Positions 1 to 4,179 of a DNA stretch of 4,179 nucleotides are shown here, piece by piece. The stretch spans positions 1 to 4,179 of the IMG/VR virus record IMGVR_UViG_2663763286_000025; one strand, 5' to 3'. Source of the DNA: a virus. Lineage: Duplodnaviria; Heunggongvirae; Uroviricota; Caudoviricetes. A program made the position numbers and the translations under genes. A model generated the notes under the pieces. It searched no databases, was not told the DNA's origin, and saw only the letters and a list, made by a program, of their open reading frames with translations. Numbering within the stretch: the stretch's first letter is position 1; each line of letters starts with the position of its first letter.

Positions 1-117
1 ACGTGGGTGGACTGGTATAACAATCGACGATTGCTGGAAAGGCTGGGCCATATTCCTCCGGCAGAAGCAGAAAAAGCTTATTATGCTTCCATCGGAAATA
101 ATGATCTGGCAGCCTGA
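1..117 (+). mobile_element. 3' end of a DDE transposase gene (integrase-core C-terminal tail, IS3-family-like); 5' part lies outside the window
   Basis: Frame 1 is open from base 1 and translates to TWVDWYNNRRLLERLGHIPPAEAEKAYYASIGNNDLAA, stop TGA at 115-117. The W-x-x-W-Y-N-x-R-R...L-G...P-x-E pattern is the typical C-terminal tail of DDE (retroviral-integrase-like) IS transposases. The exact IS and its terminal inverted repeat cannot be determined from the window. Confidence 0.55.
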
Positions 118-421
118 GTTCACAGATAAAATACTCTCCAGGAAACCCGGGGCGGTTCATACTGCTGTCTGCCCAAATTGCTCTCATGAAGAACCCAGTG
201 AAACAGACGACATTGTTTGGTCTTACCGTTCACGGGAAACGCCAGCCACCGACGCTTTCCTGGCTGAAGTGCGGGCGCAGGCGTTTAATGACCTTTGCTC
301 GGTGTTCGTTAAGGACGCGACGGTTGTCGGGCTGGACGATGGCGACATCGTTACGGTGAAAGAAGCGACGGACGCCCTGCTGCATTGTGCGGAACAGCTT
401 CGCAAAGGAGGCAACCAGTGA
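118..421 (+). pseudogene. Possible 3' remnant of a prophage gene whose 5' part was displaced by the IS; boundaries uncertain
   Basis: The track ORF 83..421 begins inside the transposase tail, so its N-terminus is a chimera. Its distal part stays open and ends with TGA 419-421, overlapping the GTG start (418-420) of the next gene in a GTGA arrangement typical of coupled phage genes. No credible start codon with an RBS lies downstream of the transposase stop in this frame. Confidence 0.3.
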
Positions 422-1179
422 GCAAGATTGACTTTCAGGCACTGCGTGAAAAGGCAGAGAAAGCAACTAAAGGAAGCTACATCGTAGGGCATACATCTGT
501 TAACCAGCACGGCAATTTAACAGGAGTTTTTGTTTGTCAAAAATGGAAAGGAGAGCCAGGTGGCGTGATTGCAGAATGTCACGTTAACTGTCTGGTTGAA
601 ACAGATGCTCAGGCTTATGCAAACGCAGAATTCATAGCAGAGGCTAACCCAGCTACCGTACTGGCACTGCTGGATGAACGGGAAAGAAACCAGCAATACA
701 TCAAACGCCGTGACCAGGAGAACGAGGAGATTGCGCTAACGGTAGGGAAGCTGCGTGTTGAGCTTGAGGAGACAAAATCAAAACTCAACGAGCAGCGCGA
801 GTATTACGAAGGTGTTATCTCGGATGGAAGTAAGCGTATTGCTGAACTGGAGAAAAGCGAAGAGCAACTCATCAACGAGCGTGACCATGCTGAGTCTGCT
901 TTAGCTGATATGTATTTTGCAGCAACCGGGGATAGGCCTGAGTGGAGTAACTGGTTCGGTTTTTCAGATGCTGTCAATGCCGTGGTTGACAGAATTGCTG
1001 ATTTAGAAGCTAAACAGCCATCGCCAGTAGTACCGGAAGGATTGATTAAAGCAGTGCGCTTCTATGAACAGGTTAAGCGTGAAAATCCGCCAGTCGAAAC
1101 CGGAGCATGGAAAGACGCTGTTGACTGGGTGCTCAAAGAGGCTTGTCAGGCTGTAAACATTCGCATCAAAGGAGAGTGA
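418..1179 (+). CDS. Ead/Ea22-like prophage protein (253 aa) with a central coiled-coil segment
   Basis: GTG at 418 sits 6 nt after a strong Shine-Dalgarno AAAGGAGG (404-411). The N-terminus SKIDFQALREKAEKATKG and the motif AEFIAEANPATVLALLDERE are recognisable Ea22-like signatures. The central region (ERNQQYIKRRDQENEEIALTVGKLRVELEETKSKLNEQREYY...) is heptad-like and charged. The track start at 385 is TTG without an RBS and is probably an artefact. Stop TGA 1177-1179. Confidence 0.75.
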   Translation: MSKIDFQALREKAEKATKGSYIVGHTSVNQHGNLTGVFVCQKWKGEPGGVIAECHVNCLVETDAQAYANAEFIAEANPATVLALLDERERNQQYIKRRDQENEEIALTVGKLRVELEETKSKLNEQREYYEGVISDGSKRIAELEKSEEQLINERDHAESALADMYFAATGDRPEWSNWFGFSDAVNAVVDRIADLEAKQPSPVVPEGLIKAVRFYEQVKRENPPVETGAWKDAVDWVLKEACQAVNIRIKGE

Positions 1180-1180
1180 G

Positions 1181-1369
1181 ATGAACGGACAAATATCAAT
1201 TATTCGCCCTGGCGCTTGTGACGAAGAGATAAGGCTGATTATCCGCCTTGCGATGGGTAGAACAATAACTGCTCTCATTACTCCAGAAAATCTCGCATTA
1301 GCATTAACCGGAAAGTCAGACCTGCCAGTAGAGCTAAAGCTGCGAAATGTTGAGATTAAGGTGAAATAG
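1181..1369 (+). CDS. Hypothetical small prophage protein (62 aa)
   Basis: ATG at 1181 is preceded by GGAGA (1171-1175) and lies 1 nt after the upstream stop. The ORF fills the gap between two recognisable genes on the same strand with no competing frame. No family recognised. Confidence 0.55.
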   Translation: MNGQISIIRPGACDEEIRLIIRLAMGRTITALITPENLALALTGKSDLPVELKLRNVEIKVK

Positions 1370-1371
1370 CT

Positions 1372-2040
1372 ATGACCACTATTACCAAAGAATGGCTACA
1401 GAAAACGATTACCAGCATTGAGTCAGCACGGGATGAAATACCGTTCGGACTCGATGAAGATCAAAGCAACATGCTTACCGCATTTAAAATTGCACTGGCA
1501 TCACTGGAACGCGAACAGATTCGCCACGAGCATGCCAAATGGTCTGACTCCACATTTGGCTGCGTTGGCCCCATTGGTCCACTGAAACACCTATCAAAAG
1601 AGGCTCTGGAAGCCGCAGCCGAACCTGACGATCTCAGCGAGTGGGCTGATATGCAGTTCCTGTTGTGGGATGCACAGCGCCGTGCTGGTATCAGTGATGC
1701 TGAAATTACCGCTGCTATGGAAAATAAATTGAAGATCAACATGGAACGCCAGTGGCCTGAACCAAAAGATGGTGAGCCTCGCTTGCACATTAAAGAACCC
1801 GACAACTCTCCGGGAACTCCGGATAGTTGGATAAGCTGTAGTGATCGAATGCCTGAAAAGGGCCAGAACGTGCTTATTTCGGTGAATTTCGATAGCTCTC
1901 TGGTTGAACCGCTAATATGCTCCGCACGCTATACCGGAAGCACCTTTCGGCGCGGAGATGCAACGATTAAGCCGGGTAATGGTATTGAGCAAGCAACTCA
2001 CTGGATGCCGCTACCGGAACCGCCGCAGGAGGTGAAGTGA
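1372..2040 (+). CDS. DUF550 (dATP/dGTP pyrophosphohydrolase-like, MazG-type) N-terminal domain fused to a DUF551 C-terminal domain (222 aa)
   Basis: ATG at 1372 lies 2 nt after the upstream stop. The N-terminal half (HAKWSDSTFGCVGPIGPLKHLSKEALEAAAEPDDLSEWADMQFLLWDAQRRAGISDAEI) matches the phage DUF550 pyrophosphohydrolase-like domain as I recall it. The C-terminal half (WISCSDRMPEKGQNVLISVNF...ATHWMPLPEPP) matches DUF551. Stop TGA 2038-2040. Confidence 0.7.
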   Translation: MTTITKEWLQKTITSIESARDEIPFGLDEDQSNMLTAFKIALASLEREQIRHEHAKWSDSTFGCVGPIGPLKHLSKEALEAAAEPDDLSEWADMQFLLWDAQRRAGISDAEITAAMENKLKINMERQWPEPKDGEPRLHIKEPDNSPGTPDSWISCSDRMPEKGQNVLISVNFDSSLVEPLICSARYTGSTFRRGDATIKPGNGIEQATHWMPLPEPPQEVK

Positions 2041-2612
2041 TGAACAACTTAATGATCGACCTTGAGACGATGGGGAAAAATAAGGATGCACCGATCGTTT
2101 CCATTGGCGCGGTGTTCTTCACTCCAGAAACCGGAGACATCGGACAAGAATTCTATACGGTTGTTAGCCTGGAAAGTGCTATGGGGCAAGGAGCTACACC
2201 TGACGGCGATACCATCCTGTGGTGGTTGAAACAAAGCCCTGAAGCACGAGCTGCAATCTGTATTGATGATACTTTGTCGATCAGCGATGCTCTCTCAGAA
2301 CTAAATCATTTCATTAACCGGCACGCAGACAATACGAAATATTTAAAAGTCTGGGGTAACGGAGCCACCTTCGACAACGTAATTTTACGTGGAGCTTATG
2401 AGCGAGCAGGACAAATCTGCCCGTGGGCATACTGGAATGACCACGATGTACGCACGATCGTTACGCTTGGGCGTTCCATCGGATTCGACCCCAAAATGGA
2501 CATGCCTTTCGATGGCGAACGGCACAACGCCCTGGCTGATGCCCGTCATCAGGCAAAATATGTTTCCGCTATCTGGCAGAAATTAATTCCTGCCACCAGC
2601 ACAGAATTATGA
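2040..2612 (+). CDS. DnaQ-like DEDDh 3'-5' exonuclease, phage type (190 aa)
   Basis: ATG 2040-2042 overlaps the upstream TGA by one base, with AGGAGGTG at 2027-2034. The three Exo motifs are visible: MIDLET (Exo I, D and E), GNGATFDN (Exo II, D) and ERHNALADARH (Exo III, H-x4-D). The track start at GTG 2037 is an in-frame alternative. Confidence 0.75.
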   Translation: MNNLMIDLETMGKNKDAPIVSIGAVFFTPETGDIGQEFYTVVSLESAMGQGATPDGDTILWWLKQSPEARAAICIDDTLSISDALSELNHFINRHADNTKYLKVWGNGATFDNVILRGAYERAGQICPWAYWNDHDVRTIVTLGRSIGFDPKMDMPFDGERHNALADARHQAKYVSAIWQKLIPATSTEL

Positions 2613-2648
2613 TTTTCCCGGGTGCAGCCGGTTTTGATGGAGAAAATT

Positions 2649-2930
2649 ATGAACACCTTGTTTTTACTGATGGCTGAATTCAATACCTCAAACATTGAAC
2701 TCTCAGCAGTTAGCCAAAAGTACTTTGGTATGAGTCCAGCCACAGCAGAAGCAAAAGCAAACGCTTGTAAGTTGCCCGTTCCAACATATCGCATCGGCAC
2801 ATCACAAAAAGCAAAACGTTGCATCAATATTCAGGATCTTGCGGAATACATAGACAAAAGACGAGAAGAAGGACGTATCGAGTGGGAACAGGTCAGAACA
2901 GGCAAACAGAAGGGCAAAGAACATCACTAA
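2649..2930 (+). CDS. PrtN-family / excisionase-like small DNA-binding protein (93 aa)
   Basis: The N-terminus MNTLFLLMAEF and the C-terminal DLAEYIDKRREEGR resemble the pyocin-activator PrtN family found as Xis-like proteins next to prophage integrases. ATG 2649 lies 6 nt after GGAG (2639-2642). In-frame alternatives at GTG 2622 and ATG 2637 lack an RBS. Stop TAA 2928-2930. Confidence 0.65.
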   Translation: MNTLFLLMAEFNTSNIELSAVSQKYFGMSPATAEAKANACKLPVPTYRIGTSQKAKRCINIQDLAEYIDKRREEGRIEWEQVRTGKQKGKEHH

Positions 2931-2932
2931 AG

Positions 2933-2958
2933 AAAAAACCCGCCTAAAGGCGGGTTTT
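2933..2958. terminator. Rho-independent hairpin terminator, bidirectional but stronger for the minus-strand transcript
   Basis: Perfect 6-bp GC-rich stem CCCGCC (2939-2944) and GGCGGG (2949-2954) with loop TAAA. It is flanked by an A6 tract (2933-2938) and a T4 tract (2955-2958), so the minus-strand RNA ends in six U and the plus-strand RNA in four U. It lies 2 nt after the PrtN-like stop and 19 nt after the stop of the minus-strand small ORF. Confidence 0.7.
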
Positions 2959-2977
2959 CAAAAAGCACCAGCTATGA

Positions 2978-3151
2978 TCATGCTGCTTTGCGACGACGAA
3001 GCTTACCCTGCTGCTCTTTACCAGAGACAGTAGCGTGAGTGAACGCATTAGGAGCAGCCTTCATCAGAACTTCAACAGCAGCCCCCATACCTGCGAATGC
3101 TTTCATTGTGTCGAACTTAAGCTGTGGCTTAGTTGCTTTTTGATCTTCCAT
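2978..3151 (-). CDS. Small hypothetical protein (57 aa), last gene of the minus-strand cassette; not in the supplied ORF track
   Basis: Manual translation of the reverse strand gives MEDQKATKPQLKFDTMKAFAGMGAAVEVLMKAAPNAFTHATVSGKEQQGKLRRRKAA. ATG is at 3151-3149 with GGAG 6 nt upstream on the minus strand, and TGA at 2980-2978. It sits 39 nt downstream of the 139-aa gene and just upstream of the terminator. No family recognised; the C-terminus is basic. Confidence 0.4.
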   Translation of the reverse strand: MEDQKATKPQLKFDTMKAFAGMGAAVEVLMKAAPNAFTHATVSGKEQQGKLRRRKAA

Positions 3152-3190
3152 AGAAAACTCCAGAAGCTATACCGAAACAATTCCTGTTGT

Positions 3191-3610
3191 TTACTCATCA
3201 TCAATAGATGATACGCAATATTTATTTTTAAATTTAAGGTTCTTTGGCGTAACTTCATCAGATATATCAAAACCGTCCAGAATTCTATTGAATGTAGCTT
3301 CTGGCATATCATCATGAACAGAAATCTCACCCGATCGCTGCTTTCTAACCATGTTATCCACTCGCCAAATTATAGCTTCAGCGTAAACAACATAACTTGG
3401 ATGCTTGATAAAGCGATGATCACCGGAATTCAAGACGCAAGACGGATCGTGGGGGACCCCATCCTTGATACTAGAAATATTAACAACTAAAACACAATAA
3501 CAATCGTTAACGGGGTAATAAACAGGATCATTACAAATCACATGAAGATGATTGCATGGCCCAGTTGGGGCAAGCACAGTTCCTTTCCTGTATGGCTGAT
3601 AATCCGTCAT
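3191..3610 (-). CDS. Hypothetical 139-aa Cys/His-rich protein, translationally coupled to the Panacea-domain gene; candidate toxin/effector
   Basis: Its start ATG (3610-3608) overlaps the upstream stop TGA (3609-3607) in an ATGA arrangement and has no independent Shine-Dalgarno. The protein has Cys at 19, 26, 37, 39, 58 and 132 and His at 21, 23, 54, 65, 70 and 99 (for example GPCNHLHVICNDP and NDCYCV). No hydrophobic transmembrane stretch and no family I can name. Confidence 0.6.
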   Translation of the reverse strand: MTDYQPYRKGTVLAPTGPCNHLHVICNDPVYYPVNDCYCVLVVNISSIKDGVPHDPSCVLNSGDHRFIKHPSYVVYAEAIIWRVDNMVRKQRSGEISVHDDMPEATFNRILDGFDISDEVTPKNLKFKNKYCVSSIDDE

Positions 3611-4179
3611 GATAATTGCAAAGAAAATTCCTTAAGTTTCTGAGATTCTTCCATTTTGCCAATTATGCGATTAGCCTCATCCTCGCTTTTACCCTCACTG
3701 ATCAGCATTTCTTTCAGGTCTATAGGCTTACGAGAATTGCCAGGATTGTGCCACTCTGGACAAACGCTTTCTAAATGCGTCATGTTTGCGAGATCAAATC
3801 GGTTCATATGCCCATACAGAGAATAGATTTCATCTAAAATCCGGATATCTGCACGGCTCAACTCATCAAAGACCTCGTCTGCATCCATTTCCCTCGGATC
3901 TGAACGCAACAACACATCATGCCCGTTCGTCTCTATCAAGTTGTACCAGTAGTCACCAATGCCTTCAGCCTTACCACGAATCAAGTTCAGCGTATTCGAC
4001 ATGACTGGACCAAATTTCATAGAGTAAAGGCTATCTTCGCCGATCATCCTGCCATGCTTCAAAATCGACTTGCGGTTAGACAGATAGAGCAGCTTCATCA
4101 ATTTCAGATATGCCATGCGCCCACCTCGCTTAAGAAGTAGGTATGCAGCCATTTGAGCTACTTTTTCTTCGCAAAACAT
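3607..4179 (-). CDS. Panacea-domain (DUF4065, SocA/PanA-like) protein, putative antitoxin (190 aa); start codon at the window edge
   Basis: The N-terminal region AAYLLLKRGG...YLKLMKLLYLSNRKS...MKFGPVMSNTLNLIRG matches the Panacea pattern (A-x-Y-f-l ... KLxKLLY ... GPV). The ATG is the last three bases of the window (4179-4177), so the promoter, and any 5' extension, cannot be seen. Stop TGA 3609-3607. Confidence 0.7.
   Translation of the reverse strand: MFCEEKVAQMAAYLLLKRGGRMAYLKLMKLLYLSNRKSILKHGRMIGEDSLYSMKFGPVMSNTLNLIRGKAEGIGDYWYNLIETNGHDVLLRSDPREMDADEVFDELSRADIRILDEIYSLYGHMNRFDLANMTHLESVCPEWHNPGNSRKPIDLKEMLISEGKSEDEANRIIGKMEESQKLKEFSLQLS

Follow-up and report, generated by a model that had tools for sequence, protein, structure and literature searches.

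A small basic protein gene behind a Panacea cassette in a prophage may be the orphaned member of a mobile GNAT/microprotein module

We analysed a 4,179-nucleotide (nt) stretch of a Caudoviricetes genome (IMG/VR record IMGVR_UViG_2663763286_000025, positions 1 to 4,179; here called the window), centring on a small open reading frame (ORF) at 2978-3151 of its minus strand, behind a two-gene Panacea cassette. The ORF runs from an ATG at 3151-3149 to a TGA at 2980-2978 and encodes a basic 57-amino-acid (aa) protein of 6 kDa, MEDQKATKPQLKFDTMKAFAGMGAAVEVLMKAAPNAFTHATVSGKEQQGKLRRRKAA, with an isoelectric point (pI) of 10.2 and a tail ending in ...RRRKAA. A Shine-Dalgarno (SD) sequence, GGAG, is located at 3158-3161 on the same strand, with the 6-nt spacer TTTTCT between it and the ATG. 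Upstream, the same-strand gene for a 139-aa protein has its stop ending at 3191, leaving a gap of 39 nt (3152-3190); no terminator separates the two genes, and a promoter scan of the window detected no minus-strand promoter for the small ORF. Downstream, a Rho-independent terminator (2934-2959, minus strand) ends the small-ORF transcript and is shared with a convergent PrtN/excisionase gene. It consists of an 11-bp G+C-rich stem followed by UUUUUUCUUU, with a folding energy of -23 kcal/mol (z = -4.0) that none of 200 shuffled sequences matched. Each homologue of the small ORF is likewise followed by a hairpin and a T-run. These elements had been proposed in a first-pass annotation made from the letters alone, and the coordinates, the translation, the GGAG with its spacing, the 39-nt gap and the basic tail were all reproduced; the 19 nt that it gave between stop and terminator were measured as 18-19 nt, with the stem starting at 2959 in the scan or at 2958 if a strict G-C stem is taken. 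The same annotation called the ORF unlisted, which was right for the ORF track supplied to it and wrong for public records, as RefSeq lists the product as hypothetical protein WP_000390069.1 and phage mEp460 carries it as mEp460_024. The gene is thus already annotated as hypothetical, and what is new here is its proposed identity as the orphaned member of a two-gene module, together with a cargo swap described at base level.

As the window contains 48 ORFs of at least 30 aa, the size of this ORF alone is not beyond chance, and the case for a gene therefore rests on comparison across sequences. An intact copy was present in all of the first 106 loci, and the ratio of nonsynonymous to synonymous substitutions (dN/dS) against the window copy was 0.10-0.29, at dS values of up to 1.4 (Nei-Gojobori method, NG86). 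When the six frames were compared, the sense frame alone was open in all 13 divergent homologues. Two antisense ORFs on the plus strand, at 3035-3211 and 3039-3143, were rejected as candidates, stops interrupting both in several homologues. Frameshifts and conservation confined to the nucleotide level were sought across the homologues and not seen, so that the test of frame conservation and substitution pattern suggested with the first-pass annotation came out in favour of coding. The 57-aa ORF is a real coding gene under purifying selection.

The protein matched phrog_2741, a family of phage proteins whose function is unassigned, with an E value of 1.5e-35, residues 1-57 aligning to positions 1-57 of the 57-position profile. 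A protein search returned homologues of 65-98% identity, nearly all of 56-58 aa, from E. coli, Salmonella, Enterobacter, Atlantibacter, Pseudescherichia, Franconibacter and Cronobacter, and further copies were reached through the partner gene described below in Edwardsiella, Serratia, Photorhabdus, Shewanella and phage Eeyore. A profile search matched only 14 clusters among 1.84 billion representative proteins, and the family is therefore small. Scans of Pfam, NCBIfam and PADLOC and an alignment-based PDB sequence search of the 57-aa protein gave no match. Its members (53-61 aa, pI 9.4-10.8) share the signature (F/Y)-D-T...A-F-x-x-M-G-A-A-V-E-x-L-x-K-A-A-P, a variable linker, (Q/H)-G-(K/R), a basic run and Ala-Ala; the C-terminus is a basic run plus AA (rarely VA) in all divergent representatives, for example RRRKAA, RKVAA and KNKAA. 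An AlphaFold2 (AF2) model of the 57-aa protein has one amphipathic helix at residues 15-32 (predicted local distance difference test, pLDDT, 75-81) and disordered ends; its overall confidence is low, with a pLDDT of 65. The 53-aa homologue of phage Eeyore (MEMKKERLFDT...QGRRRVREAA; PP925821.1 19904-20065, locus L107 2798-2959) is unannotated in the deposit, in which four short, probably spurious ORFs are annotated over or around it.

In every genus except two orphan cases, a same-strand gene for a protein of 177-184 aa stands upstream of the small ORF. It was found in E. coli mEp460-type prophages, Salmonella, Enterobacter, Pseudescherichia, Franconibacter, Edwardsiella, Serratia, Photorhabdus, Shewanella and phage Eeyore. 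The partner (~178 aa) had no meaningful match in Pfam, NCBIfam, PADLOC or PDB sequence searches, and its assignment to the GNAT acetyltransferases came from a fold search only. The AF2 model of the mEp460 partner, mEp460_023, had a pLDDT of 92.8, and Foldseek against the PDB gave 308 matches with E <= 0.001; the top 50 listed were all GNATs, with E values of ~1e-6 to 2e-5 and template modelling (TM) scores of 0.43-0.59. Among these 50 were AtaT, TacT3, KacT, GCN5, SpeG, RimI/J and NatD; a lasso-peptide acetyltransferase was also matched at the same level. The ranking does not separate toxin GNATs from other GNATs, and an activity like that of AtaT or TacT is therefore neither supported nor excluded by it. 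Motif B (Y148-x3-G152-F153) is invariant in the partner, motif A is atypical (HPLxGxM), and the predicted alpha/beta fold together with motif B places mEp460_023, as modelled, within the GNAT fold. No GNAT gene was found in the window, either in its ORF list or in a Pfam scan.

Coupling of the two genes was assessed from the side of the GNAT gene, in 112 loci selected for its presence; 80 were viral and 32 metagenomic, their GNAT identities went as low as 33%, and they encoded 27 different small proteins. All 112 had the small ORF on the same strand, 79-248 nt downstream. The small ORF occurred without the GNAT gene in two lineages, namely one E. coli arrangement (205 of ~563 carriers), which is that of the window, and a Cronobacter-type lineage. 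Elsewhere the small gene is strictly coupled to the GNAT gene, and the coupling is asymmetric: the larger partner was never found alone and the small one sometimes was, as is expected of type II toxin-antitoxin (TA) pairs. The two products are also complementary in charge, the GNATs being acidic (pI 4.3-5.5, net charge -4 to -18) and the small proteins basic.

The pair was found in several genomic slots. In E. coli and Salmonella it lies at the prophage end between attP (dusA) and xis; in metagenomic contigs, Edwardsiella, Serratia and phage Eeyore between the antiterminator gene Q and the lysis genes; in Photorhabdus among tail genes; and in Shewanella adjoining a DNA methylase gene. Lambdoid moron or cargo slots are likewise found at the att-side prophage end and downstream of Q, and the pair sits in such slots with its own promoter-like element and terminator; this likeness is one of location only and not of function. 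Chromosomal islets beside an EamA-like transporter gene carry the pair in Pseudescherichia and Escherichia sp. In L004, L006 and L007 (Escherichia sp. ESNIH1, Pseudescherichia) it forms a two-gene islet directly downstream of the transporter gene, with a downstream neighbour that varies by genome and no obvious phage genes in the ORF lists of ~4 kb upstream and ~1.2 kb downstream, which suggests that the pair can persist or move without a prophage. We thus see an uncharacterised, strictly coupled two-gene module that moves among temperate-phage moron slots from Escherichia to Shewanella and for which Pfam, NCBIfam and PADLOC hold no model. A literature search found no paper describing a prophage module of a GNAT and a small protein, and the NetFlax paper makes no mention of a GNAT.

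In E. coli two arrangements were found upstream of the small ORF, which between them cover essentially every one of the ~563 carriers in 5,426 complete genomes. The PanA arrangement (Panacea gene, 139-aa gene, 39 nt) was present in 205 of the 5,426 genomes and in phages SKA5 and Lys8385Vzw, and the GNAT arrangement (~178-aa gene, ~195-nt intergenic region) in 358 genomes and in phage mEp460. Comparison of the two by BLAST showed that the shared flanks end at -1222 (PanA) and -817 (GNAT) from the small-ORF ATG and resume at -13. On the left, homology reaches to 194 nt before the Panacea start and 84 nt before the start of the 178-aa gene. As flank homology resumes at -13, window positions 3165-4179 are exchanged cargo, with the small ORF immediately beyond; the swap has its right-hand junction at ~3164/3165, within the 39-nt spacer and just upstream of the ATG. 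The GGAG is the sole piece of the small ORF's native upstream region that is retained, the suffix common to both arrangements being GGAGTTTTCT. The swapped slot of the window lies between attP (dusA) and xis, and the locus thus gives a clean, base-resolved cargo exchange at a prophage-end hotspot with both arrangements common in E. coli.

What the swap removed can be seen in the GNAT-bearing loci, where a conserved -10-like element lies just past the GNAT stop, in the form TGATAGGAT, TGTAGGAT, TGATAGAAT or GCGTATAAT. A leader of ~80-250 nt precedes the small ORF in the copies outside the window; examples of the spacer between the two genes are L087 538-733, L004 4845-5000 and L101 3038-3220. 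In Enterobacteriaceae the spacer has two conserved hairpins, CCAATCG...CGATTGG and GAGAC-N6-9-GTCTC, the latter directly 5' of the SD, and a CCUUU/GCUUU stretch that pairs with the SD in the folds. Other genera, too, have a short hairpin immediately 5' of the SD, of differing sequence; when the 40-60 nt preceding the ATG were folded in 13 lineages, no single fold was significant (z -1.4 to +0.7), and we do not claim this hairpin as established. When the upstream classes were compared, the 39-nt spacer of the window had neither the native promoter-like element nor the structured leader.

The second orphan lineage, podovirus-like and of Cronobacter type, carries the small gene without a GNAT gene and with a varying upstream neighbour. 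The basic tail has been lost in these orphans and the helix kept, with a dN/dS of 0.14 at a dS of 0.74. The orphan genes of this lineage have a conserved upstream block in common (L092 3925-4000 and L226 2425-2500), in which a terminator-like hairpin and a -10-like element, TATACT, accompany the perfect palindrome GTGACATGTCAC, and this combination suggests that the Cronobacter-type orphans may have their own operator-controlled promoter.

We propose that the small ORF of the window is the orphaned downstream member of a mobile GNAT/microprotein phage module, in which the GNAT gene has here been replaced by the PanA cassette, and assign this a probability of roughly 55%. The module would consist of an acidic ~178-aa GNAT-fold acetyltransferase-like protein and a basic microprotein of 53-61 aa. 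The GNAT gene, along with the promoter-like region and structured leader of the microprotein, would have been replaced by the unrelated Panacea + 139-aa cassette in an exchange that ended ~13 nt before the small-ORF ATG, so that the small gene survives as an orphan. Since the native promoter region is deleted and no minus-strand promoter was detected, expression of the orphan 39 nt behind the PanA operon, if it occurs, would most likely come only by read-through from that operon to the shared terminator.

More tentatively, and at rather less than even odds for the whole of it, the microprotein may bind, neutralise or regulate the GNAT, with the amphipathic helix and basic tail placed on the acidic surface of the enzyme. 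The basic run and Ala-Ala at its C-terminus would then make it proteolytically labile in the manner of an antitoxin, in this case encoded after the toxin. For the window copy no cognate target would remain in cis, and its role would be at most that of a residual antidote to GNAT genes arriving with related phages. A GNAT that never stands alone and a small gene that sometimes does is the pattern predicted by a toxin/antidote pair, and a mostly disordered protein with a single helix fits a binder that folds on its target. Given the separate -10-like element and leader, such an antidote could be made independently of the enzyme. Recognition signals of ClpX include the ...LAA of ssrA and the ...RRKKAI of MuA, and the small-protein family almost invariably ends in a similar way, with a basic run plus AA or VA.

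Several points weigh against this proposal. The interaction between the GNAT and the microprotein is putative, as are the toxicity and even the activity of the GNAT, whose motif A is atypical. A ClpX degron in the Ala-Ala tail of the small protein is likewise putative. The acidity of the GNAT argues against the tRNA-acetylating mode of known GNAT toxins, as tRNA-binding GNAT toxins are not strongly acidic, and an AtaT- or TacT-like action on tRNA is unlikely. Most type II pairs combine a basic toxin with an acidic antitoxin, and here the charges are reversed; a gap of 79-248 nt with a separate promoter-like element is also unusual for TA operons. The asymmetry of the coupling rests on only two independent orphaning events, and the purifying selection seen in the Cronobacter-type orphans means that the function of the small protein may not need an adjacent GNAT. 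On the side of the proposal, the tail loss of the Cronobacter-type orphans fits decay after orphaning, and polymorphism pointed to relaxed constraint, with 6 nonsynonymous and 3 synonymous changes in the PanA arrangement against 13 and 35 in the GNAT arrangement (Fisher p = 0.048) and three of the six nonsynonymous changes in the last four residues of the small protein; the polymorphism result is marginal and comes from non-independent samples.

Compared with the GNAT TA systems TacAT, AtaRT, KacAT and ItaRT, the module is similar in being a mobile unit of two genes, with a GNAT-fold protein of ~175 aa and a small partner, in having AtaT, TacT3 and KacT among the structural neighbours of its GNAT, and in that the GNAT is never without the small gene and the small gene can stand alone. 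The antitoxins of those systems are ~90-aa ribbon-helix-helix (RHH, DUF1778) DNA-binding proteins encoded upstream of the toxin gene and overlapping it. By contrast, the small protein has 53-61 aa, a single predicted helix, no RHH and no Pfam or NCBIfam match, and its gene lies 79-248 nt downstream of the GNAT gene behind its own promoter-like element; in the window there is no GNAT at all. With no RHH or DUF1778 domain, a reversed gene order and no overlap, we therefore do not class it as TacA- or AtaR-like. Orphan antitoxins and anti-addiction remnants offer another parallel, in that the small partner outlives the lost larger one and its C-terminal tail bears signs of looser constraint. They differ in that antidote activity is only putative here and that the helix of one orphan lineage is still strongly constrained. 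A helix so constrained would suit an anti-addiction role, and no less the idea of the small protein as a substrate or effector, considered below.

A bolder version of the proposal would make the GNAT and the ~57-aa Ala-Ala microprotein an undescribed phage toxin/antidote or defence/counter-defence module with inverted gene order, a structured leader under its own regulation and a degron-tailed neutraliser of one helix, and the window ORF a functional orphan antidote that protects the lysogen from GNAT-carrying relatives beside an unrelated PanAT. We consider this unlikely. If the pair does turn out to act as toxin and antidote, or against phages or defence systems, a non-RHH neutraliser encoded downstream would join the GNAT toxin repertoire, and a well-conserved microprotein with a likely C-terminal degron would join the few phage small proteins that are functionally understood. 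The GNAT/microprotein module is in any case the real lead to come from the window ORF.

The best-surviving alternative, possible if improbable, is that the small basic protein is a substrate or effector and the GNAT its modifying enzyme, acting for example by lysine or N-terminal acetylation. A nucleic-acid- or ribosome-binding microprotein would then keep some activity after loss of the GNAT, as in the window. An acidic enzyme with a very basic partner agrees with this, and the structural matches of the GNAT include NatD, RimI/RimJ and the lasso-peptide acetyltransferase, level with the toxin GNATs. The Cronobacter-type helix is under purifying selection though the tail is lost, and the small gene has a promoter-like element and leader of its own. 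However, acetylation of the small protein is hypothetical, no nucleic-acid-binding fold is predicted in the model, and coupling in 112 of 112 loci with loss of the GNAT only is explained equally well or better by a toxin and its antidote.

Clearly more doubtful is the idea that the small protein acts on its own as an accessory factor of the phage, for instance by inhibiting a host factor or in lysogeny or exclusion, and that its linkage to the GNAT reflects no more than a co-inherited moron neighbourhood; in the window it would simply work on beside a new neighbour. Its persistence without the GNAT in two lineages, one at a dN/dS of 0.14, and the separate expression signals and own terminator in all lineages speak for this. 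Against it, the pair moves together into at least four genomic slots as well as chromosomal islets, across orders, and the GNAT is never alone in 112 loci, which is hard to explain without functional dependence.

The first-pass annotation had suggested that the small protein is a third component of the Panacea cassette and could be a regulator, chaperone or second antitoxin-like factor. It is probably a small binding or neutralising factor, and to that extent the suggestion holds, but its membership in the cassette is unsupported and a third functional component of the Panacea/139-aa pair is by our estimate very improbable. Kurata et al. 2022 used a 100-nt criterion for three-gene PanAT architectures (PMC8832971), and the window fits it: the Panacea gene overlaps that of its 139-aa partner, and the small ORF follows on the same strand at 39 nt, with no terminator or detectable promoter between, so that it is probably co-transcribed. 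The three-gene order is fixed in the 205 E. coli genomes and in phages SKA5 and Lys8385Vzw, and some PanAT loci do have accessory third genes. These occur in small fractions of loci only and probably have no general role in toxicity or neutralisation (PMC8832971); a search of the text-form supplementary files of that paper for the accessions of the three window proteins found none of them.

Co-occurrence across species with the same pair, which the earlier annotation had proposed as a check, is what the small ORF does not show. Four further elements (Yersinia phage YeP1, Klebsiella phage ST13-OXA48phi12.5, Pseudomonas phage Sirocco and an Endozoicomonas plasmid) carry a Panacea gene and a homologue of the 139-aa gene as a compact pair, and none of these four loci has a small-ORF homologue (best hidden Markov model E 0.15) or room for one, as a convergent gene or a terminator follows within 17-37 nt of the pair. 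The small ORF moreover falls beyond the exchanged segment, stems from what occupied the locus before, shows excess nonsynonymous polymorphism in the PanA arrangement, and has as its conserved partner across genera the GNAT-fold gene that is absent from the window. The minus-strand cassette is a two-gene PanA system with a left-over gene of earlier cargo, and not a tripartite unit.

That the ORF is no gene at all (but a 3' untranslated region, a small RNA that stops at the terminator, or an ORF open by chance) is already effectively refuted: a permissive Rfam search gave no family at gathering score and only weak sub-threshold matches that cluster on the terminator and reflect its hairpin, the sRNA-17 reported in mEp460-type prophages (PMC7719688) maps ~3.5 kb away and beyond the window, and dN/dS is 0.1-0.3 with saturated synonymous sites in a protein conserved to Shewanella with one frame open.

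The PanA cassette itself comprises the Panacea gene (3607-4179, minus strand; 190 aa, WP_000458583.1), whose SocA/DUF4065 domain was identified by PF13274 with an E value of 1.8e-18, and the 139-aa gene (3191-3610, minus strand; phrog_19071), which belongs to the swapped-in segment and encodes a putative PanT toxin partner of the Panacea protein. The Panacea stop and the long start of the 139-aa gene share 4 nt; the RefSeq version of the latter has 128 aa (WP_014640052.1) and starts 11 codons later, without the ATGA overlap. No Pfam domain was found in the 139-aa protein, which likely represents an uncharacterised PanT toxin family; homologues also occur in Vibrio and Helicobacter phages.

The convergent gene on the far side of the shared terminator (2649-2930, plus strand) is of the PrtN family (PF11112, E 1.3e-22) and excisionase-like (phrog_1300 excisionase; RefSeq annotation), and is part of the prophage backbone. 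At the left edge of the window, positions 1-117 of the plus strand hold the last 36 codons of an ORF, ...DWYNNRRLLERLGHIPPAEAEKAYYASIGNNDLAA, which matching E. coli genomes annotate as the 3' end of an IS3-family transposase. Insertion sequence (IS) elements thus appear to interrupt the early-left region of the prophage, and these prophages look degraded.

The sRNA-17 mentioned above is a 193-nt ArcA-regulated RNA of E. coli K1 RS218, from the mEp460-type prophage family (PMC7719688). It was rejected as a candidate for the small-ORF locus, as its diagnostic 21-30-mers do not occur in the window; related contigs have them in the early-left region, ~3.5 kb past the small ORF (e.g. L009 4596-4660). 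The study that described sRNA-17 dropped 'hypothetical protein' genes before defining intergenic regions (PMC7719688), and the 'intergenic' sRNA-17 locus may overlap annotated phage ORFs.

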